From assembly GCA_030693145.1 (NCBI GenBank), contig JAUYBI010000068.1, positions 16,374 to 80,373 of the forward strand: DNA of 64,000 nucleotides, given 5' to 3'. This DNA comes from Candidatus Omnitrophota bacterium. GTDB taxonomy: Bacteria; Omnitrophota; Gorgyraeia; Gygaellales; Profunditerraquicolaceae. The translations under genes were made by a program, and so were the position numbers. Of this stretch, positions 7,143 to 55,822 are shown one piece after another. Position 1 is the stretch's first letter. Each line of letters begins with the position of its first letter. The notes below the pieces were generated by a model that did no database searches, was not told the DNA's origin, and saw only the letters and a list, made by a program, of their open reading frames with translations.

Positions 7143-7217
7143 AAGGTTTGCTAACTTTTATTAGTTATCAATTACAGTAGGGGAGGTTTAAACCTCCCCT
7201 ACTGTAAAAAGTCAACT
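7143..7217. repeat. Repeat family A, copy 1: long palindromic element with a GTAG-palindrome core agtaggggagg-tttaaa-cctcccctact
   Basis: Near-identical to the elements at 41502-41600 and 53925-54030. Its right arm supplies the last codons (VDFLQ*) of queH. Confidence 0.8.
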
Positions 7218-33097: not shown

Positions 33098-33170
33098 GTC
33101 ATTCCCGCAAAAACGGGAATCTATTTTTTTTCTAGATCCCCACTTTCGTGGGGATGACGCTTCGCGTCAC
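33098..33170. repeat. Repeat family C copy: double hairpin gtcattcccgc-aaaaa-gcgggaatc ... gatccccac-tttc-gtggggatgac
   Basis: Same architecture as 51376-51424 and 51894-51952. It encodes the odd C-terminal tail ([12 protein letters not shown]) of the clpP ORF. Confidence 0.8.
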
Positions 33171-41501: not shown

Positions 41502-41600
41502 CTATAATAAACTCTGCTGACTTTTATTAACAATAGTGGGGTGGGTTTAAACCCACCCTACTATTGAAAGTCAACAAGGTTTATTACACTGTCATTTGAT
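41502..41600. repeat. Repeat family A, copy 2 (aactctgctgacttttattaa ... tagtggggtggg-tttaaa-cccaccctacta ... ttgaaagtcaacaaggtttattacactg)
   Basis: About 95-nt match to 53925-54030 in the same orientation. The stem has compensatory substitutions relative to copies 1 and 3. Confidence 0.85.
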
Positions 41601-48600: not shown

Positions 48601-50000
48601 TGGATAGCCACTATCGGCTGGCTAGCCAGAACATTATTTATTGCAGCAGTAGAAGGCGGCTGTTGTTTAAAAGCCAATTTTGCCTTTGTGCCGGGGTTAA
48701 CTGTAGTTGTTCCGGTGGCAGTAGATGGCGTCATTGTGTCTCCGGCGCTTCTGGTTGCGGTAATTGTGGGCGTGCCGGTTTTAGTATCTTTGTAGTAGAA
48801 GGTTGCGTTGCTTGTGCCTGCCCCGATGGTTACGCTGGTAATTGTCGTTGTGCCTGCTGCATCGCTATAAAAGGTAACTGTGCCGGTTGAGTTAGAAGAA
48901 AGCGAGAACGTCGTAGCTAAAGTAACATTGGCGCCGGTATTGCCATAAATATCCATACCAGTAATGGTAAAAGCGCCTGAAACAGTTCCGGCAATTACCG
49001 AAACCGAACTTGAAATACTTGCCCTAGAAGCAGCTGCAGCGTTAAAAGTTATGGGCAGGGATGTGCCGGTCATCGAAGTATATGTGGCAGTAACCGTAAC
49101 ATTTTCGGATTCAGTGTCGGTTAAGGTAACCGCAGCCGCGCCGTTAGTAAAATCCACTGCTGTTAAAGAGCTCTTGTTCAGAGCAGCAGAGTCAACCACG
49201 GTTCCTCCTGTTTCAGCTTTGGTTACACTTACGCTAGTGGCAGGACTATAAACAGTAATAGTATTGCCGGCTGAATCTTTGGCAGTAATCGTTACTGTCT
49301 GATTCTGGCCTGCAATTGCCTGATAAGTCGGATGCGTTACTAAAAAATAGTCGGTGTTAGCGCTACTTAGAAGGATATCGCCAGAGGCAAATGAAAAGTA
49401 TCCATCATAACTGCCTCCGGCAAAAAGAACACCTGCGCTTGAAATAATTTGGATTGTTTTATTATCTTTTATATAGCTTACGCCTGTATTATAAATATCC
49501 AATCCTAAATAATCTGCTGATGCGGCAGCGGTAAAGCTGGTAAAAGAAAGCCCTCCGACAGTAATATATTCGCTTGCTATAAAATTAGAGGTAACATTTA
49601 AGACTAATATTTGGCCTGAACCCTCATAAGTTACCACGGTGCTTACTTTAGCAGAAGCAGTGCCGCTAATGGTGGCAGTAGTTTTAGTGGTATCCCAGAG
49701 CATACCAAAGCCCGAGGGAATTCTTATCCTTAAATCGTTAATCGCAGTAATGGCTCCGCCGGTAGAATCAGTTATGGTTATGCTGGAGATAGCCGTAGAC
49801 GCCTGGCCAACTACAAAACTCTGATTAGCAGCAGCCGAAGAAATAGTTACGTTAGGCCCGCCAAGATTAAGGTCAACAGAGACGCCTGAGCCATAGCCGT
49901 CGTAACTGCCGCCGGTGTAGTCGGCAAAGGCAACGCCTACGCAGGCAAATAACAGCGCAACCGTCAGCACTACCTTATTCAGCGTATTAAACTTCATCAT
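42696..50000 (-). CDS. Giant (2434 aa) secreted surface protein with many bacterial Ig-like (Big_1/invasin-type) repeats and a C-terminal coiled-coil region
   Basis: Signal peptide MMKFNTLNKVVLTVALLFACVGVAFA. T/S/A/G-rich beta repeats including repeated GQVLSVTSATTDA(S/N)GQAQT(T/V)LTLGN units. The last ~300 aa are K/E-rich and heptad-like. RBS agaggtgg lies 5 nt before the ATG. Only a 12-nt gap separates it from the DGR RT stop. Confidence 0.8.
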   Translation of the reverse strand: MMKFNTLNKVVLTVALLFACVGVAFADYTGGSYDGYGSGVSVDLNLGGPNVTISSAAANQSFVVGQASTAISSITITDSTGGAITAINDLRIRIPSGFGMLWDTTKTTATISGTASAKVSTVVTYEGSGQILVLNVTSNFIASEYITVGGLSFTSFTAAASADYLGLDIYNTGVSYIKDNKTIQIISSAGVLFAGGSYDGYFSFASGDILLSSANTDYFLVTHPTYQAIAGQNQTVTITAKDSAGNTITVYSPATSVSVTKAETGGTVVDSAALNKSSLTAVDFTNGAAAVTLTDTESENVTVTATYTSMTGTSLPITFNAAAASRASISSSVSVIAGTVSGAFTITGMDIYGNTGANVTLATTFSLSSNSTGTVTFYSDAAGTTTITSVTIGAGTSNATFYYKDTKTGTPTITATRSAGDTMTPSTATGTTTVNPGTKAKLAFKQQPPSTAAINNVLASQPIVAIQDAYGNQTTDTDPITLYASTSNSVYTAAPGTLAAAANPLSAIAGQANFSGVKYNTTGVIYLYAQSGTLQPVFSTGITFSTASDSTVELAAVPVTNFNLAPTNSELANKFAVLSFKVKDTGTDSVPTQIDRIQLTVGGTGGNAATDIAWAGLYQGATQVATATGPAITNSTITFGITPNSNSIADLYSIADNTAIEFTVYIYMKPGKLTATEGQTYTFGINETGIGTDTGVSTQMSANTSKVTTVTGTITVVVSYLEVVGQATGNSSISVAAGSPVNLTVRATDANKNIDKDYINNHTFIFSGLASIGGNNPAMNGVTLGYNTTINFPISPGGVSLANGATLTAYKAETASFSVSEVGQSYAVFPLTVTVTAPSASAANMSLASGDSQSGKVSVALANPFVVTVKDAYGNAVSGASVTFAISSVPGGATGQVLSVTSATTDASGQAQTTLTLGNTAGQYQVTATSTGLTGSPITFTSIAVTPSTLNKISGDSQSKTVALILTDPLVVKLVGAGNVAIPNETVTFAISSVPTGATGQVLSVTSATTDANGQAQTVLTLGNKTGDYVVTVSYAGLTSVNFTATGLAGVPYKVVLSGPGSSNAGVVSTAFSAIIKDSYDNLTNAVTATAFLLTSNVATGSFYSDSAGTISISSITVASGASSAAFYYKDTAIGLPAITAARSAGDSLNVSSSSASINILAAGLDHFAITGSTTTLTAGSSRPITITAYDAYDNVKTNLNSDVAIVFSGANASLAPSSNSPTSSNNLSNDINFGADTLLTFTNGAATATLKLYKAESVLIKTSALPVTTSNAQALGFVVKHNTADHLKFSGTVNGATVGTAISLGALNAVDLYNNLCDGANGGAAYTGSKTISYVLSGLTNAPDGSATDLWPTNPVSFTNGVSAALSVTLYRAQSTTITANAADLTGANIASNSITMQAAAMGKLWFSQQPSTNPFTNIALPAQPKVNVADQYGNAVTSVSDQISLLPSLTSGTYTPVTNGTLSGDSLAVVLVNGVATFSGIKYSYPESIYLKAHSMGNLAPDIYSYQITFKVGADTAIATGPLVKPTSISSLIYTDAAKLQVFDFKVTDAGSDGYATKLKQIVIARNTATDTTGGWQSYIAGAAISDGTTSIMGTITNDALTFGTGTSIISSVPDGQSKTYTLSVYLNQTLPVGADGKAIAFSVNPTANLTVDSPGSAFAAAGAITSSLVVDVTVTKFMVSGDSAIVAAGASSTVTTKATDINNNLDTDYSGVKEIIFSGANSATSGGTTYNPTCTNYSAVDIAFGNITLVNFTSGQSISTITMKLYKAESAAIKTKTSDAVITTPDADALAVVVTGGAASKLSWNTQPVATVVANAPWSSFKVSVVDTYGNIAPSAINLTVAPTGGTLRAGATAQVATVSGIATFDNLAVYCAVYPGIVTLNATAAGVTASGASNNVTVVEKYAITMKAFDSVNGSPLTELTLKIIDSNTGQLVTGLTNPIIGNSPFSFNLPYGNYSFNFNKTAYVESTVDKTANVSADAVDGAYDNNISWTVFLMSTAESLADYKVLSNFVYDEANDRITGLVRLEKRGKQITSDDINTLKTSTLKIFDSSDAVNPKYTASLAVTDANSNYYFNIDNAVAAKGFVRGRNYFAKMTILYGGVDLSTNVTYSAANDFTISVMSTLNTLAGQIAASVASEGALTRSQLTSKIESTAAATQAKVAQVSAQAGQILTTTTAIPAQITTAQTAITDNIATKIKPHITSGILNSETTIKQGGKMTIRYRTVTGLAPVLNIYSPKDVLLLSNKGMTEIGAAGIYEYNVTFLASWGLGTFTVICSESTNGTVDALVMTVTQSNLEDVSGQVSAVLGSTSGISGLKNVAETIGLQFNDMDKLLTKISKDIAGKLGDTKNAVDDLASAFKQLEAISKQIEDIGGTKGINLEKLYEVSKDKNNDITYIKNKSEELKAAMEINKKLIEDQNKKPVVQSWFEFK
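46930..47370 (-). repeat. Near-identical intragenic tandem duplication of about 300 nt (two Big_1 units) inside the giant gene
   Basis: gaagtaactgacaatacctggcc ... ggaagaaattgcaaaagttacg recurs about 300 nt apart with few differences. Confidence 0.7.
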
Positions 50001-50012
50001 CCACCTCTGCAG

Positions 50013-51074
50013 TTAATTGGTTAATAAATTTTGCGCCAGATAACCGATACTGCTTTTTTTCCTGGCTAACTCCTTAAAGATACTTCTGCGTAAAGTTGCG
50101 GTGTTAGCGTATTTACTGTGCGCTGCCCAGCAACGCAGAGAGTCCCTGACCGCGGCCTTTGTAATTTTGCCGCTGGCAAATAAAAAGTCAAATTTATTGA
50201 GCTGTTTTTTAAAACGTTTCACATTATCGGAAGTAAGCCGGCGATACCCGGAGAACAGCCTAAAGCCCAAAAACTTTATGCCCTCAGACGCAGAATAAAT
50301 CTGCGATTTATCTTGGTGCAGTCGAAGCTCTAAACTGGCGTGCAAAAAATTTCTTATTCTTTCTTTAATCTCAACCAGCCTTATTTTTTCATTGCTAAAA
50401 ATTAAAAAATCATCCATATAGCGCAGATAATACCTTATTCTCAAATCAAATTTTATAAAATAATCCAATTCGTTTAAATAAAGGTTGGCAAAAAACTGGC
50501 TGGTGAGATTACCGATGGGTAAACCTACGCCTAACTGCAGACAGGCAGGCAATGACCTAGCCGAATCAACAATCTCATCCAAAAGCCAGAGGGCGTCTTT
50601 ATCCTCAATCCTCATTCTTAAAATCCCCTTAATGATCCGGTGGTTGATGGAAGGAAAATATTGTTTGATGTCGCCGTGAAAACAAAATTTATTCGCCCGT
50701 AAAAATCCCTGCGCCCTGTCCACCGCCTTATGCGTTCCCTTGTCTTTCCGGCAGGCGTAAGAATCGTAAATAAAAGTCTTATCGATTATCGGCTCAATAA
50801 CATCGTGCACCGCGTGATGCACAACCCTGTCCTTAAAAGGTGCTGCGGCGATATTGCGTTCTTTCGGGTCATAAATTTTAAATAAACGGTATTTCCCATG
50901 GCGATAGGTTTTGCGAAGCAATTCTTTATGCAGAAGGTCAATCTTTTCCTCAAGAAAAAAATTAAAATCCGCCGTTGAATCCCTGTATCGCCTGCCTTTT
51001 GAGGCCATAAAGGCCGAGTGATAAAGATTTTCTTTTGATATTATTTTAGGATAAATATTGTTTATCTTCACCAT
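50013..51074 (-). CDS. Diversity-generating retroelement (DGR) reverse transcriptase
   Basis: 353 aa. RT motifs include NIAAAPFKDRVVHHA, LPIGNLTSQFFANLYLNELD (the DGR-specific I/LGxxxSQ) and YLRYMDDFLIF (YxDD catalytic motif). Lies next to the TR/VR pair. Confidence 0.9.
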   Translation of the reverse strand: MVKINNIYPKIISKENLYHSAFMASKGRRYRDSTADFNFFLEEKIDLLHKELLRKTYRHGKYRLFKIYDPKERNIAAAPFKDRVVHHAVHDVIEPIIDKTFIYDSYACRKDKGTHKAVDRAQGFLRANKFCFHGDIKQYFPSINHRIIKGILRMRIEDKDALWLLDEIVDSARSLPACLQLGVGLPIGNLTSQFFANLYLNELDYFIKFDLRIRYYLRYMDDFLIFSNEKIRLVEIKERIRNFLHASLELRLHQDKSQIYSASEGIKFLGFRLFSGYRRLTSDNVKRFKKQLNKFDFLFASGKITKAAVRDSLRCWAAHSKYANTATLRRSIFKELARKKSSIGYLAQNLLTN

Positions 51075-51142
51075 ATTTTCCTCGTCATTGCGTTATAGTA
51101 GCGGACGTTTAAACGTCCGCTACTGGATTCGTGTAAAACTAA

Positions 51143-51270
51143 AGAGGTTTTGACGGCACGGCCGCCGTTATTGTTGTTCCGATTCGCATTCGTGTTCGCC
51201 GCGTTGTTGCGGTCAGAGGCGCGAGCGTTCGTCGCAGCATTGTTCCAATTGCCGCCGCGATTGCCAGCAC
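51143..51270 (-). repeat. DGR template repeat (TR), about 128 bp
   Basis: Matches the 3' end of the target gene (52008-52136). In my manual alignment all 17 differences are at TR positions that are A on the coding (minus) strand. It is AAC-codon rich on the coding strand. Confidence 0.85.
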
Positions 51271-51375
51271 AACACTTTTACGACGCTGAACCATTTTTTA
51301 AAACCATATCGGGTAGAAACTTACTTCACAACAGGCCTCCGCCCGATATTACTGCGTGTTTTCCCTCCACCTTGT

Positions 51376-51424
51376 GTCATTCCCGCGCATGCGGGAATCT
51401 GATCCCCGCTTTCGCGGGGATGAC
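51376..51424. repeat. Repeat family C copy between TR and avd (gtcattcccgcgcatgcgggaatct gatccccgctttcgcggggatgac)
   Basis: Double-hairpin architecture. The track ORF 51321..51596 is its spurious translation. Confidence 0.8.
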
Positions 51425-51516
51425 GTATAGCGGAGGATGGAAATAGCGTCTGAACCTCTCCAGTTCTAGTTCCGCTCCCGGGGTCCGTAGGCCGCGGGAT
51501 TCTGGAATATATGTCC

Positions 51517-51855
51517 TCAAAGAACAGACATCTTAAGCCAACCGCCAACCATTTTTCCGATTTCAATGGCTGATTGGCAGAAAAAATCATAAGCATTGAT
51601 ATTAACGTACTTCATATCTTTGGCGATTCGCATCATAAAACGTAAAACATCTAATTTCAGATTAATCTTTATTAAGATCTCTCTTTTCTGCTTGGAATAA
51701 TTGGCTTCGATCAGCATTTCCAATATATCCAGCAGGATCCTCTCGATCCTGTCTGCCAGTAAAAATTTCTGATCCTTGGGGAAATTTGCCATTTTGGGCA
51801 GCATCCAGAGGATCAATTTGTAATGCTTTTCCACTACCGGTGTTACTGTTTTCAT
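51517..51855 (-). CDS. avd: DGR accessory variability determinant (Avd-like)
   Basis: 112 aa, basic, predicted helical. Sits between target/VR and TR/RT as in canonical DGRs. The C-terminal IGKMVGGWLK resembles the end of Bordetella phage bAvd (recalled from memory). Confidence 0.7.
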   Translation of the reverse strand: MKTVTPVVEKHYKLILWMLPKMANFPKDQKFLLADRIERILLDILEMLIEANYSKQKREILIKINLKLDVLRFMMRIAKDMKYVNINAYDFFCQSAIEIGKMVGGWLKMSVL

Positions 51856-51875
51856 CTTACAGCCTCATTCCATCC

Positions 51876-51952
51876 GTCATTCCCGTGATCCCTGTCATTC
51901 CCGCGGAAGCGGGAATCTACTTCTTTTAGATCCCCACTTCCGTAGGGATAAC
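51876..51952. repeat. Repeat family C copies (one partial, one full) immediately downstream of the VR and upstream of the avd start
   Basis: gtcattcccgtgatccct then gtcattcccgcggaagcgggaatc ... gatccccacttccgtagggataac. Confidence 0.75.
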
Positions 51953-52001
51953 AACTTACAAATCCTCAAAAGAACAAATAACCAAAGTTCTACAAAACCT
52001 C

Positions 52002-53486
52002 TTATGGAGAGGTTCTGACGGCACGGCCGCCGTAATCGATGTCCCGACCCGCACTCGTGAACGCCGCGTAGTAGCGGTCAGAGGCGCGAGCGTACGTCGC
52101 AGCATTGCCCCAACTGCCGCCGCGATAGCCAGCACCAACCGCATCTGTAACAGGCCAATTAGTAACATTGGCATTTCCTGTTCCGTCTAACGCGCCGTCT
52201 CCATTTAAACCCGTAAAAGCCCTGCCTGTAGTATTCCCTACGGTAACCGGCCTCTCCCAGAGATTTCCGGAAAGTTCCATTACACCATAATAGCCTGCCC
52301 CACTGGTTACCCTTGTACTTGAACCAGTAGCGAATATACCGCATCTTAAAGGGCCTGTTCCCGCGTCCCCGCCGATAAAAGTTGTGTTATTATAAGCGCA
52401 ATTTGCCCCGGCGTTGGTAATTGTCTCGGTGCCGTTTTCTGCGCCGGATATGTCTCGAGCCGCGGTAATGCTTGTGCTCCCCCAGGCGTATTCATTGGGC
52501 GTAGAGACAGAATCTCCTCTGGCTGCCTTTTCAAATTCTAACTCTGTGAAAGGCCTTAAGGCCGCCCAATCAAAATAAGCGGTTACATCCGCCCAGGAAA
52601 TAAAATTGCACGCCCTGTCCGGACGGGACGCGGAATAATTCGGGTAGGTGCCGGAAATAGTATGGCGGTAAGTAGTTTGAGCCGGATATCTGGTTGTGGC
52701 TTGCGCTGAGGTAATGGTGTTTAAAAAATCCGCGTATTGGCCTTGGGAGATTTCGTATTTCATCATATAGAATGCCGCGTATCCTTTGGGGAATGCCACC
52801 GGGATTGGCCCGGCCTGGTCGCCGCCGTAAGTGCTTAACGCATAATAGAGATTACCGGCTGTTGTCCCTACGGTAATCTCGTTTTCTGAAGCTATTAAAT
52901 AGGCATTCGTGGTTGTGGGATAGGTATAGAATGCTGACGTCTCAGTTCCACCCGAACCTACATAGAAAGCGCTGGTAGGAATATAGACCATCTCTATGGC
53001 AAATACCTTTACCCGCACAGTACTTGTGCTGATAACGCCATCCGCGCCATAATCCCAAACAAATTGGATAGAACTTGTGGAAACGCTTCCTGCACCATTA
53101 GCCGAACGCTGCAGAAAAACGCCTTTTTTATCCGCGGGCACAATAATATCCAGAGCCGTACCTGAGCCCTGAGAAAAACCCGCAGGATTTGTACCTGAGG
53201 TTTTAAGCGTAGCGTGATTCCAACTTACTCCTGCGTTTGTGGAATATTTGATAAATACCCAGGCCGCGTCATAATTAGCAGCCGTTCTCCAGGAGTTATC
53301 CCAGGAAATATTAAACTGTACTGCTGCCGTCACTTGGCCTAAAGATACATTGCCTAGAGAAACAGTTGAAACGTTAAGATTATTCGCTTCTGCCTTATCT
53401 ATCAGAAGGCAAAAGACAAAAGACAAAAGACAAACAGAAAATAAAAACAAACAATATTTACATCCCTGCCGGCTATTTTTTTTCAT
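52002..53486 (-). CDS. DGR target protein: secreted/membrane-anchored protein with a C-terminal C-type-lectin/FGE-like fold carrying the variable region
   Basis: 494 aa. N-terminal hydrophobic leader. C-terminal motifs YMMKYEISQGQYADF, VMELSGNLWERP and YRGGSWGN are typical of DGR variable-protein CLec folds. The VR forms its last ~43 codons. Confidence 0.85.
   Translation of the reverse strand: MKKNSRQGCKYCLFLFSVCLLSFVFCLLIDKAEANNLNVSTVSLGNVSLGQVTAAVQFNISWDNSWRTAANYDAAWVFIKYSTNAGVSWNHATLKTSGTNPAGFSQGSGTALDIIVPADKKGVFLQRSANGAGSVSTSSIQFVWDYGADGVISTSTVRVKVFAIEMVYIPTSAFYVGSGGTETSAFYTYPTTTNAYLIASENEITVGTTAGNLYYALSTYGGDQAGPIPVAFPKGYAAFYMMKYEISQGQYADFLNTITSAQATTRYPAQTTYRHTISGTYPNYSASRPDRACNFISWADVTAYFDWAALRPFTELEFEKAARGDSVSTPNEYAWGSTSITAARDISGAENGTETITNAGANCAYNNTTFIGGDAGTGPLRCGIFATGSSTRVTSGAGYYGVMELSGNLWERPVTVGNTTGRAFTGLNGDGALDGTGNANVTNWPVTDAVGAGYRGGSWGNAATYARASDRYYAAFTSAGRDIDYGGRAVRTSP
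52008..52136 (-). repeat. DGR variable repeat (VR) with a GC-rich IMH-like 3' end (cggcggccgtgccgtc on the coding strand)
   Basis: Aligned with the TR at 51143-51270. Every substitution sits at a TR adenine on the coding strand. Confidence 0.85.
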
Positions 53487-53571
53487 CGCTACTTCCCTCC
53501 TTCTAATCTCTTAGAACTTATAAAATAAAACTCCACGACTTTACGGACGTGGAGTTACGCTGGATAATAAA

Positions 53572-53620
53572 AAAGCCCGAATTTCTAATGACTTAAGAAA
53601 TTCGGGCTTTTTTATCAGCC
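53572..53620. terminator. Bidirectional intrinsic terminator hairpin (aagcccgaatttct-N-agaaattcgggctt) flanked by A/T tracts
   Basis: 13-bp stem with T-runs on both sides. It separates the TA/RAYT region from the DGR target promoter region. Confidence 0.5.
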
Positions 53621-53657: not shown

Positions 53658-53712
<55 letters not shown>

Positions 53713-53924
53713 ATACCATTGTCTCCATTAAAAAATCCCCAGCAGGTTATGCCGGGGATAATTCCCTAAAAAACTTTTTTCACTTCGGCAGTCTGCCTTT
53801 CCGCTTTCGCGGAAGCATAACTTTGCGTCCTCCGATTACCCGGAGTTTGCCTTTTCGGTTCCATTCCTGCTTTTTCTATATATAAGTATAACATAAATTT
53901 TATTCCTTTCAAGCTCCGCACATT

Positions 53925-54030
53925 TTTGACATTATATTAAACTCTGCTGACTTTTATTAATTATCAATTATAGTAGGGGAGGTTTAAACCTCCCCTACTA
54001 TTAAAAGTCAACAAGGTTTGTTACACTGTA
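53925..54030. repeat. Repeat family A, copy 3 (aactctgctgacttttattaattatcaattatagtaggggaggtttaaacctcccctactattaaaagtcaacaaggtttgttacactg)
   Basis: Direct repeat of copy 2 (41502-41600). Together the two copies bracket the DGR plus giant-protein block. Confidence 0.85.
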
Positions 54031-54409: not shown

Positions 54410-54667
54410 TTACCTATAAACTTCTCTTCTATGATCAATTCTAATTATGCCGATATATTTTTCTGTCTTTGAAAAGGAATATATTACTCTGTAATCACCA
54501 ATGCGATATGCATAGCAACCCTTGAATTCTGCCTGTAAGGGTTTACCTATAAGGGGGTCGCTGGCAATATACTCTAATGCTGAAGCAACCCTTTCTTTAA
54601 GTTTTTTATCTTTGAGTTTTTGGAATTGACCTGAGGAGATATTCGAAAATCTGATAGGATAGCTCAT
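54410..54667 (-). CDS. relE: RelE/ParE-family type II toxin
   Basis: Short basic protein with YRVIY motif. Overlaps the antitoxin gene. The start is likely MSYPIRF (54667), not the track's upstream Met. Confidence 0.65.
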   Translation of the reverse strand: MSYPIRFSNISSGQFQKLKDKKLKERVASALEYIASDPLIGKPLQAEFKGCYAYRIGDYRVIYSFSKTEKYIGIIRIDHRREVYR

Positions 54668-54668
54668 A

Positions 54669-54938
54669 TTAATTTCTTTGCGGCCGGCCCACCACTTCTT
54701 TAAAGCTTTTAGTTTTACCAAGGCTTAATTCTCTTTTTGCCTTTCTAATTTCTCCCAAAGCTTTTCTATCAGACATTATTTCTAAAGTTTCAAGCCACCC
54801 TTCAAATTCATCAGCATTCATTACTACTGCTGCCGGCTTTCCCCGCTTAGTTATTATAAATCTTTCCAGCCTTTTGTCAGAGTTTCTAATCAGCTCTAAA
54901 AAATGCGCCTTTGCTTCGGTAACAGTTAATGTAGTCAT
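54669..54938 (-). CDS. yefM: Phd/YefM-family antitoxin
   Basis: 89 aa. N-terminal MTTLTVTEAKAHFLELI is typical of YefM. Immediately upstream of the toxin. Confidence 0.7.
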   Translation of the reverse strand: MTTLTVTEAKAHFLELIRNSDKRLERFIITKRGKPAAVVMNADEFEGWLETLEIMSDRKALGEIRKAKRELSLGKTKSFKEVVGRPQRN

Positions 54939-54950
54939 ATCTTTACCTCC

Positions 54951-55166
54951 CTAAATATTTCTCTTTTTACCATTTAAAGTATAAATCATAATTCTAAACT
55001 TGTCAAGGACAAAATGACTATTTTTATGACTATAAAGGAGATCATTCCTATCATCCGCAATGACATCGCCATTTTGGGCGCCCACGAGGGGCGCCCCTAC
55101 GATTGCGATCACACCATGCAAATGATTCGGTAATTCCGGGCACCATGCAGGTAATTCCGGGGACAC
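54951..55166 (-). pseudogene. Fragmentary duplicate of the RAYT/IS200-like transposase (HuH region only)
   Basis: An 88-bp segment (55051-55137) duplicates 55449-55536 within the intact gene. It encodes PNHLHGVIAIVGAPLVGAQNGDVIADDRND. Confidence 0.5.
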
Positions 55167-55198: not shown

Positions 55199-55822
55199 TC
55201 AAGTTTTTGTTTCTGAGGCATAATATTCATCCTCTTCCCATTTTACCGGATTATTAACGATATATTCCCGAATACGATTTAAATCGTTATCATTGCGGAT
55301 AACATGTTCATAATAATTGCGCTGCCAGAAATATTCGTCAAACGGTAACCAATTTTCATTTTTGACATTTCGAATATATTCATTTGTGGTAATTGATTTA
55401 AACGCGCCAATAATATCTCCCAACGTAGGGGCAACCCTCGTGGTTGCCCGATCATTCCTATCATCCGCAATGACATCGCCATTTTGGGCGCCCACGAGGG
55501 GCGCCCCTACGATTACGATCACACCATGCAAATGATTCGGCATTACGATAAATTCATCCAATTCAATAAATTGAAACCGTTGTTGCAATTTATTCCAGCT
55601 GTCTTCAACCATTATACCCACACCATTTAACATTATTTTCCCGCCATCAATATCACCAAATAAATTCCGGCGTTCATTTACGCATACCGTCACAAAATAA
55701 TACCCTGCCTGCGAATAATCATAACCCGCCAAACGAATCGACCTGCGATTCCTATTATCAAAACCTACGCGCATTATTTTTTCCAATTCACGTAGGGGCA
55801 ACCCTTGTGGTTGCCCCATCAC
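55199..55822 (-). mobile_element. IS200-like / REP-associated tyrosine transposase (RAYT, COG1943)
   Basis: 207 aa. RLAGYDYSQAGYYFVTVC N-motif, HuH motif MPNHLHGVI and a C-terminal catalytic Tyr region FWQRNYYEHVIR. GTAG-palindromes (gtaggggcaaccctygtggttgcccc) occur at its 5' end and internally. Confidence 0.8.

Follow-up and report, generated by a model that had tools for sequence, protein, structure and literature searches.

We describe a diversity-generating retroelement (DGR) in a 64,000-nucleotide stretch of DNA from a Candidatus Omnitrophota bacterium (contig JAUYBI010000068.1 of assembly GCA_030693145.1, positions 16,374 to 80,373 of the forward strand; hereafter the window, numbered from its first letter). 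We are confident that the locus is a genuine chromosomal DGR, complete and, very probably, active, by which the binding face of a secreted, lectin-like protein is very probably re-drawn. Its parts, its family membership, the adenine-only divergence between its template repeat (TR) and variable repeat (VR), and the ongoing diversification in sister lineages are established. An initial annotation of the window had named a complete cassette on the minus strand, with a 494-aa target protein (motifs ELSGNLWERP and RGGSWGN), a 112-aa Avd-like protein, a TR and a 353-aa reverse transcriptase (RT) with LPIGNLTSQ and YMDDF. All of these parts are present as named, in the canonical order target gene with VR, avd, TR and RT (Table 1). 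It had also asked for profile searches, and their outcome, given below, puts the target's C-terminus in the formylglycine-generating enzyme (FGE) family with the VR as the C-terminal part of the domain, puts the small protein above the cutoff for DGR Avd proteins, and puts the RT on the DGR side with no clustering among group II intron or retron RTs.

The two repeats carry the argument. TR and VR align without gaps over 128 nt at 87% identity, with an offset of 865 (repeat finder and alignment), and their homology breaks off sharply on either side. All 17 mismatches lie at coding-strand adenines of the TR; nine are A>G and eight A>T, or T>C and T>A on the plus strand. The TR is composed of 35 adenines and 93 other bases, and none of those 93 positions differs in the VR. 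The chance of all 17 mismatches falling on A is very small (hypergeometric P = 7.4e-12). Read in the target's frame, the TR contains eight AAC and six AAT codons, making 14 AAY codons (Y, C or T), of which 13 are altered in the VR, and every VR change is non-synonymous; all TR adenines but one (34 of 35) occupy the first or second codon position. The initial annotation had anticipated most of this. Its 128-bp TR at 51143-51270 was returned by the repeat finder, its 17 differences, all at plus-strand T and all T to A or T to C, were reproduced exactly, its otherwise perfect identity holds, and the counts that it had proposed, of mismatches by TR base and of AAC and AAT codons in the TR, gave the figures above. 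Of its VR, 52008-52136, the start stands and the end does not, being one base too long (the VR ends at 52135). The signature of mutagenic homing that it had recognised is supported by the adenine-only divergence. A scan of the 64-kb window with any base allowed at TR-A positions found no TR-like copy or VR beyond the known pair. A weak 23-nt similarity at 49904-49926, offered by the repeat finder, was judged to be a chance match and not a VR.

The protein machinery is that of a DGR. The best solved relative of the RT is the DGR RT of Bordetella phage BPP-1 (8ub7; expectation value [E] 1e-44 over residues 5-328), with a group II intron RT as the runner-up PDB match (E 2e-22), and the RT also falls in the PHROG family 'Reverse transcriptase' phrog_1423 at 380 bits. 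The product of avd (accessory variability determinant) scores 106.6 bits against NCBIfam NF033474, the DivGenRetAVD equivalog, for which the curated cutoff is 80, and 72.7 bits against Pfam bAvd (cutoff 40); it also matches PHROG 'Avd protein of DGR'.

The target protein begins with a hydrophobic helix, continues as a beta-sandwich (residues ~38-176) and ends in an FGE-type C-type-lectin domain (~230-494). The helix is a predicted signal peptide or anchor, and we read the protein as secreted. Residues 233-490 match Pfam FGE-sulfatase (PF03781) at 50.3 bits against a cutoff of 23.3. An AlphaFold model built with 60 homologues has a mean predicted local distance difference test score (pLDDT) of 91.3 and a predicted TM-score (pTM) of 0.90, and in Foldseek it matches FGE structures with an E of 1.8e-7, a probability of 1.0 and target-normalised TM-scores of 0.53-0.57. 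The beta-sandwich domain gave no clear Foldseek match, and the target's N-terminal domain has no similarity to the 2434-aa giant protein encoded downstream of the cassette. FGE enzymes hold a catalytic Cys pair in their C-terminal active-site segment. The last 60 residues of the target, the VR-encoded segment, have no cysteine, which points to a binding protein rather than an enzyme; NCBIfam enzyme models (SenA and others) reach at most 17 bits. The target is identical to NCBI MDP3042609.1 from a Candidatus Omnitrophota metagenome-assembled genome (MAG), and this entry and its relatives are annotated as 'SUMF1/EgtB/PvdO family nonheme iron enzyme' or 'formylglycine-generating enzyme.' Since the protein lacks the catalytic Cys pair and has a DGR VR as that segment, the enzyme label of MDP3042609.1 is misleading and should be taken as a fold label only. 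FGE-type DGR targets are routinely mis-annotated as SUMF1/FGE enzymes, and the present locus exposes this recurrent error in its 'SUMF1/EgtB/PvdO nonheme iron enzyme' form.

Cellular DGRs with FGE-type C-type-lectin targets include those of Treponema denticola (TvpA) and Legionella (LdtA), which vary the C-terminal region of proteins that are secreted or on the cell surface. TvpA was not found among the sequence or Foldseek matches of the window's target, so its kinship to TvpA does not go beyond fold and family. Unlike TvpA-type targets, the window's protein has the additional N-terminal beta-sandwich domain.

We suggest that the cassette works as follows. The TR would be transcribed, and the RT together with Avd would make cDNA from it, misincorporating opposite template adenines. 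At the 3' end of the target gene, this cDNA would then replace the VR. In this way about 14 AAY-coded residues could be re-drawn on the ligand-binding face of the FGE-type C-type-lectin domain while the scaffold stays fixed, and the theoretical repertoire of the target after mutagenic homing would be ~1e20 sequences.

Table 1. Features of the DGR locus and of its surroundings in the window (window coordinates).
Feature	Position	Strand	Basis and remarks
Giant adhesin-like gene, 2434 aa	42696-50000	minus	Immunoglobulin-like (Big_1), secreted; not a DGR target, having no VR
DGR reverse transcriptase, 353 aa	50013-51074	minus	LPIGNLTSQ and YMDD; Pfam RVT_1, PDB, PHROG
Template repeat (TR)	51143-51270	minus	35 adenines; 14 AAY codons in the target's frame
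avd, 112 aa	51517-51855	minus	NCBIfam, Pfam bAvd, PHROG
Post-stop motif, ~40 nt, GTAGnnCTTTGGnTTTTTG-n6-TTTTGAGG	51950-51992	minus	Alignment of 20 loci
Hairpin across the 3' boundary of the VR, CAGAACCTCT-CCATA-AGAGGTTTTG	51993-52017	minus	10 bp; stop codon in loop
Variable repeat (VR)	52008-52135	minus	Encodes target residues 451-493 of 494; ends 3 nt before the stop codon
DGR target gene, 494 aa	52002-53486	minus	Pfam FGE-sulfatase, AlphaFold, Foldseek
Hairpin T3, ACTCCACG-loop-CGTGGAGT with U-rich tail	53521-53555	minus	Sequence and fold; stem identical in L002
Hairpin T2, terminator-like, AAAAAAGCCCGAATTTCT ... AGAAATTCGGGCTTTTTT	53562-53620	minus	Inverted repeat I1, minimum-free-energy fold
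Leader open reading frame, 57 codons	53541-53714	minus	GGAG 8 nt before ATG; repeat at once after the start
(GACA)13 tetranucleotide repeat in the leader	53658-53709	minus	
Terminator T1, ATCCCCGGCATAACCTGCTGGGGAT then T6	53729-53759 (stem 53735-53759)	minus	Terminator scan, minimum-free-energy fold
c-di-GMP-I riboswitch aptamer	53784-53861	minus	Rfam RF01051
Promoter-like site TTGAAA-16 nt (with TG)-TATACT	53885-53912	minus	Consensus scan, 10/12 matches; kept in syntenic L002

Relatives of the cassette supply the evidence for activity. In species-representative genomes the nearest RTs are 65-89% identical to the window's, and all are from Candidatus Omnitrophota MAGs except for two bins labelled Planctomycetia/Planctomycetales. 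Metagenome contigs add about 50 related loci of Omnitrophota type (designated here by L and a number), which have the common layout target-avd-TR-RT and A-biased TR/VR pairs. In L002 the whole module is syntenic at ~80% nucleotide identity, and a more sensitive detection run placed 15 of its 17 TR/VR mismatches at A. Three pairs of near-identical sister contigs, with identical TRs within each pair, differ mostly in the VR. L005 and L090 are 99.06% identical over 3.8 kb, and the 130-nt VR accounts for 20 of their 36 differences, with 18 at TR-A; between L091 and L092 the VR holds 17 of 31 differences (15 at TR-A), and between L120 and L007 it holds 20 of 31 (17 at TR-A). The RTs of these hypervariable sister lineages are 61-79% identical to the window's RT. 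The same can be seen in 13 full-length proteins of one 90%-identity cluster, whose representative is 76% identical to the window's target: up to nine residues per column occur at the AAY-coded positions 458-485, the changes outside such positions are sparse and biallelic, and the 13 proteins come from different samples. To judge from these comparisons, sister Omnitrophota lineages are undergoing ongoing VR diversification, and an invariant VR, which the initial annotation had named as evidence against an active DGR, is refuted for them. In addition, 11 of 43 related contigs end inside or right beside the VR, a pattern to be expected where strain heterogeneity breaks assemblies.

For the window's own copy, which we infer to be currently active, the evidence is indirect, because only one sequence of its lineage is on record: exact-sequence look-ups of the RT, Avd and target yielded no second one. 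Several other observations also count against an active cassette. An insertion of ~95 nt, resembling a repetitive extragenic palindromic (REP) element, parts the VR-flank motif from avd in the window, a REP-like copy is also present within the 68-nt TR-RT spacer, and such insertions could have disturbed cis elements or the DGR RNA. Moreover, one TR codon, AAA at residue 491, could mutate to a stop codon, as no other codon could. The locus might thus be a relic, a cassette that formerly diversified its VR and is now inactive with the VR frozen, as the single sequence of the lineage and the REP-like elements between VR and avd and between TR and RT would allow. We regard a relic as improbable, given three uninterrupted open reading frames (ORFs), an RT with its motifs, an Avd score that exceeds the cutoff and sister lineages that are demonstrably diversifying. 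Furthermore, TR and VR have kept every non-A position, whereas sister contig pairs that are 98.4-99.1% identical already show scattered substitutions outside the VR; the last homing event therefore appears to have been recent, in agreement with an active DGR.

The arrangement recalls the DGR of BPP-1 (mtd-avd-TR-brt): both have the order target with 3' VR, avd, TR and RT, adenine-only differences from TR to VR that lie mainly in AAY codons, and a GC-rich 3' end common to TR and VR, followed by divergence, with a hairpin on the VR side. Unlike that of BPP-1, the window's DGR is chromosomal and not phage-borne, its target is a secreted FGE-type lectin protein and not the tail-fibre protein Mtd, its 68-nt TR-RT spacer is filled by a dispersed REP-like palindrome, and it appears to be embedded in a larger unit that also includes a riboswitch leader and a gene for a giant surface protein. 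The identical gene order, together with the matches of RT and Avd to PHROG phage families, could suggest that the DGR belongs to a phage or prophage and serves to switch receptor tropism, as that of BPP-1 does. We consider this highly improbable and reject a phage origin, since viral contigs carry no RT more than 41% identical to the window's, the target has no PHROG match, and cellular genes surround the DGR (KdsA, KdsB, a PfkB kinase, heptosyltransferases, a ParE/Phd pair and a Y1 transposase); in addition, the base composition is unremarkable, and the module adjoins the giant gene in many Omnitrophota MAG contigs. The last alternative, an RT of another retroelement class (group II intron, retron or a DRT/Abi defence RT) beside an unrelated duplication, is effectively refuted: although the top-scoring model of NCBIfam, which holds no DGR-RT model, is the group II intron RT/maturase TIGR04416 (139 bits, cutoff 300) and PADLOC lists DRT models (best named defence model, 106 bits, compared with 380 bits for phrog_1423), the TIGR04416 score and those for retron St85 (56 bits, cutoff 235) and Drt3a (66 bits, cutoff 200) are far under their cutoffs, the BPP-1 RT leads group II intron RTs by 22 orders of magnitude in E, the Rfam scan of the window shows no group II intron RNA or other RNA family except the riboswitch, avd adjoins, and the mismatches are adenine-only (P = 7e-12).

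Candidate cis elements, a putative boundary of the IMH/IMH* type and a VR-side hairpin, lie at the 3' end of the VR. TR and VR have in common the GC-rich sequence GGCGGCCGTGCCGTC, after which they split, the VR continuing with AGAACCTCTCC and the TR with AAAACCTCTTT. A hairpin spans the VR boundary on the VR side only, the TR being without a counterpart; its DNA fold has a free energy of -12.6 kcal/mol and a z of -4.1, compared with a z of -0.9 for the equivalent TR segment. It is kept in the closest sub-clade (L081, L083, L084, L098, L101 and L104) and is not family-wide. The GC-rich 3' end and this hairpin may have roles in homing, and the hairpin may, by analogy, act in target recognition. 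Just after the stop codon, a further motif of ~40 nt is conserved in 20 loci with RTs 54-86% identical to the window's, and in relatives it leads into the ribosome-binding site of avd. It could be a homing element or the translation-initiation region of avd.

Downstream of the cassette is a giant adhesin-like gene, whose ATG comes 12 nt after the RT stop codon with GAGGTGG ahead of it. More than 20 related loci encode a homologue of the giant protein immediately after the RT. Compared with that of L002, the window's giant protein is 90% identical over the C-terminal 400 aa and 75% over the N-terminal 400 aa. A pattern scan found no terminator-like sites in the intergenic gaps on the DGR strand. 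DGR and giant gene are putatively co-transcribed.

On the other side, ~300 nt upstream of the target gene and on the DGR's strand, lies an aptamer of the c-di-GMP-I (cyclic di-GMP; GEMM-I) riboswitch class, the sole RNA family that Rfam finds in the window. It scores 65.8 bits against RF01051 (gathering score 35) over the full model, 1-87, and four distinct homologues show compensatory stem changes. Since the GGC-variant model RF03167 scores almost equally well (57.6 bits, gathering score 59), specificity for c-di-GMP is assumed. Directly 3' of the aptamer is T1, a stem of 10 pairs (six G-C) that is present in the minimum-free-energy fold and differs in L002 in the loop only; T1 is the putative expression platform of the riboswitch. 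The site ahead of the aptamer, from its match to the consensus, probably functions as a promoter. The aptamer is found at the same position in L002 and in L046, L132, L130 and L131, upstream of the target genes. In the latter four, which form a clade with RT ~50% identical to the window's, the riboswitch is preceded by RT and TR, and leader and target are separated by a Y1-transposase-like ORF.

Between T1 and the target gene is a leader ORF that starts with a tetranucleotide repeat. It passes through T2, a hairpin with 25-nt arms of 92% complementarity that is in the minimum-free-energy fold, and it ends at a stop codon in the T3 loop. Next downstream come the ribosome-binding site and ATG of the target. 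Relatives have a repeat at the same place with other units and copy numbers (AAGC x8, AGAC x7/11/12/13/19, AAGC x15/18), that of L002 being (AAGC)8, and between near-identical loci the copy number changes from 7 to 13, 15 to 18 and 12 to 19. Past the repeat, one frame of three is open. The leader ORF reaches into the hairpin or beyond it in seven loci and ends ahead of it in four; the ribosome-binding site, start codon and repeat of the leader ORF are in all loci compared. Each of the 11 T2-bearing loci that we fetched has the tetranucleotide repeat upstream and a same-strand DGR target homologue downstream (11/11), and L101 has a similar repeat-bearing ORF before a different terminator-like hairpin. 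Down to the target's ribosome-binding site, the leaders of the window and L002 are better conserved than the coding sequence.

Taking these features together, the locus appears, from its layout and its conservation, to be one transcription unit of promoter, riboswitch with T1, leader ORF with two hairpins, target, avd, TR, RT and giant gene. If so, the lectin and the mutagenesis machinery would be co-expressed with the giant surface protein, subject to both c-di-GMP and the reading frame of the leader repeat. We propose tentatively, and as a reading that may well be wrong, that this is a surface-variation operon of three layers, in which a riboswitch and a phase-variable leader precede the DGR and the giant adhesin-like protein. 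First, the c-di-GMP riboswitch would set whether transcription gets past T1. Second, the slippage-prone repeat would set the frame of the leader, so that ribosomes either melt T2 and T3 or do not, giving a stochastic on/off state. Only then would the variable lectin, Avd, TR RNA, RT and giant adhesin-like protein be produced. Were this true, hypermutation itself, beyond the target protein, would depend on a second messenger and on phase state, and the re-drawing of the receptor would be coupled to the attachment lifestyle of a probable epibiont or predator.

Two facts tell against such an operon. Three terminator-like hairpins separate the aptamer from the target, so the riboswitch may gate the leader only. 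The aptamer, moreover, is absent or decayed in the close relatives L086, L088, L090 and L093 and in L127, L137 and L138, and no other riboswitch class was found in the close relatives without it. Riboswitch and repeat leader could then be a self-contained unit, serving only the small ORF or a gene since lost, without control of the DGR and adjacent to it for historical reasons. Short of an even chance, this is nonetheless a serious possibility: besides the three hairpins and the relatives that lack the aptamer, the clade of L046 and L131, with its Y1-transposase-like ORF right after the leader and its RT and TR upstream of the riboswitch, fits it. It is harder to reconcile with the target homologue that follows on the same strand in 11/11 T2 loci, with the base-for-base conservation of the leader between the window and L002 as far as the target's ribosome-binding site, and with the consensus scan, which finds no other strong promoter-like site from T3 to the target's ATG. 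A leader peptide of variable repeat length with a terminator is, furthermore, a proven on/off switch for pilus genes (PMC3894217).

That precedent is pil1 of Streptococcus gallolyticus (Danne et al. 2014, PMC3894217), where the repeat length in a leader peptide governs whether a terminator is destabilised: if the peptide is longer and in frame, ribosomes melt the stem-loop ahead of the surface-appendage genes. The window likewise has a short ORF with a simple repeat of variable length, then a terminator-like hairpin and then surface-protein genes, and only one frame enters T2. It differs from pil1 in its 4-nt unit (AGAC/AAGC, not GCAGA), in having two hairpins, in the riboswitch upstream and the DGR downstream, and in its phylum. 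The layout of the window's leader would thus fit, by analogy, an attenuation switch of the pil1 type within the proposed operon. The c-di-GMP-I (GEMM-I) riboswitches that precede adhesin, pilus or motility genes are also similar, with an aptamer and intrinsic terminator followed by surface-protein genes; unlike these usual cases, the downstream unit of the window includes a mutagenic retroelement.

DGRs are well known, and catalogues of them hold tens of thousands. To our knowledge, Omnitrophota is a phylum without isolates, and little is known of the control of DGR activity. The accessible part of the text of Roux et al. 2021 (PMC8144416) has Omnitrophica in the PVC group of its DGR catalogue, reports that cellular DGRs commonly target cell-surface or cell-cell interaction proteins and that most catalogued DGRs are active by population analysis of single-nucleotide variants, and makes no mention of riboswitches. 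DGRs of uncultured lineages were treated by Paul et al. 2017, as cited in PMC10066038. Giant ORFs of Omnitrophota have already been described, and giant surface proteins are thought to mediate host attachment (PMC10066038). Full-text-searchable literature yielded no paper linking DGRs with a riboswitch, c-di-GMP or a phase-variable leader, and the searchable papers describe no conserved link of a DGR to a giant adhesin-like gene or to a leader with such a repeat. The cassette itself is of a known kind, a clean textbook DGR that adds little to the catalogues; its regulatory and genomic context merits follow-up. This context ties a diversified lectin to a giant surface protein of the kind thought to mediate Omnitrophota host attachment (PMC10066038), and it would provide a testable case of regulated hypermutation, with a second-messenger sensor and a repeat-based switch before the cassette, conserved in relatives.

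Layouts vary somewhat among the related loci. In L001, whose RT, at 89% identity, makes it the closest relative, ~690 additional bases separate avd from the VR end (L001 positions 50-874, compared with 51983-51852 of the window), and the contig begins within the invariant 3' end of the VR. The more distant L014, L105 and L116 have two VRs per TR, the second target gene being sometimes remote, whereas the window's DGR has one VR only. In L127 (2428-2503), L137 (3511-3586) and L138 (6784-6859), the aptamer model matches with 14-19 bits at the homologous position; these sites look like decayed riboswitches that have kept the 5' half (AAAAGGCAAAC), with repeat leader and T2 intact. The Y1_Tnp-like ORF between the riboswitch/repeat leader and the target is ~255 aa long in L046 (3803-4564) and L131 (2258-3040), and L090 has an apparent decayed start of such an ORF.

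Two dispersed repeats are found in the intergenic regions of the window. The palindrome AGTAG-N6-TTTAAA-N6-CTACT occurs at 7176-7203, 41535-41562, 51097-51124 and 53972-53999 with compensatory stem changes; it is REP-like, with a GTAG head, and one copy lies in the TR-RT spacer, another a little upstream of the riboswitch promoter. The copy at 51097-51124, a perfect palindrome of 28 nt, was considered as an RNA element of the DGR and rejected, as it recurs at the unrelated intergenic sites 7176, 41535 and 53972; TR-RT spacers of relatives, which go down to ~20 nt, also disfavour the idea. The second repeat is a hairpin, ATTCCCGC-N4-GCGGGAAT, at 51379-51398, 51897-51916 and 33101-33120, two copies of which lie in the intergenic gaps of the DGR (VR-avd and avd-TR). 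As a cruciform of the BPP-1 type downstream of the VR it was likewise rejected, being a dispersed repeat that is absent there in relatives. Upstream of the riboswitch promoter, all on the minus strand, a ParE toxin and Phd-YefM antitoxin pair (54410-54938) lies between the promoter and a gene for a Y1 transposase (IS200-like, RAYT-type; 55199-55822). A 71-codon ORF at 54951-55166 repeats part of the adjoining transposase (NHLHGVI.IVGAPLVGAQNGDVIADDRND) and is probably a pseudogene fragment. The Y1 transposase may mobilise the REP-like palindromes.

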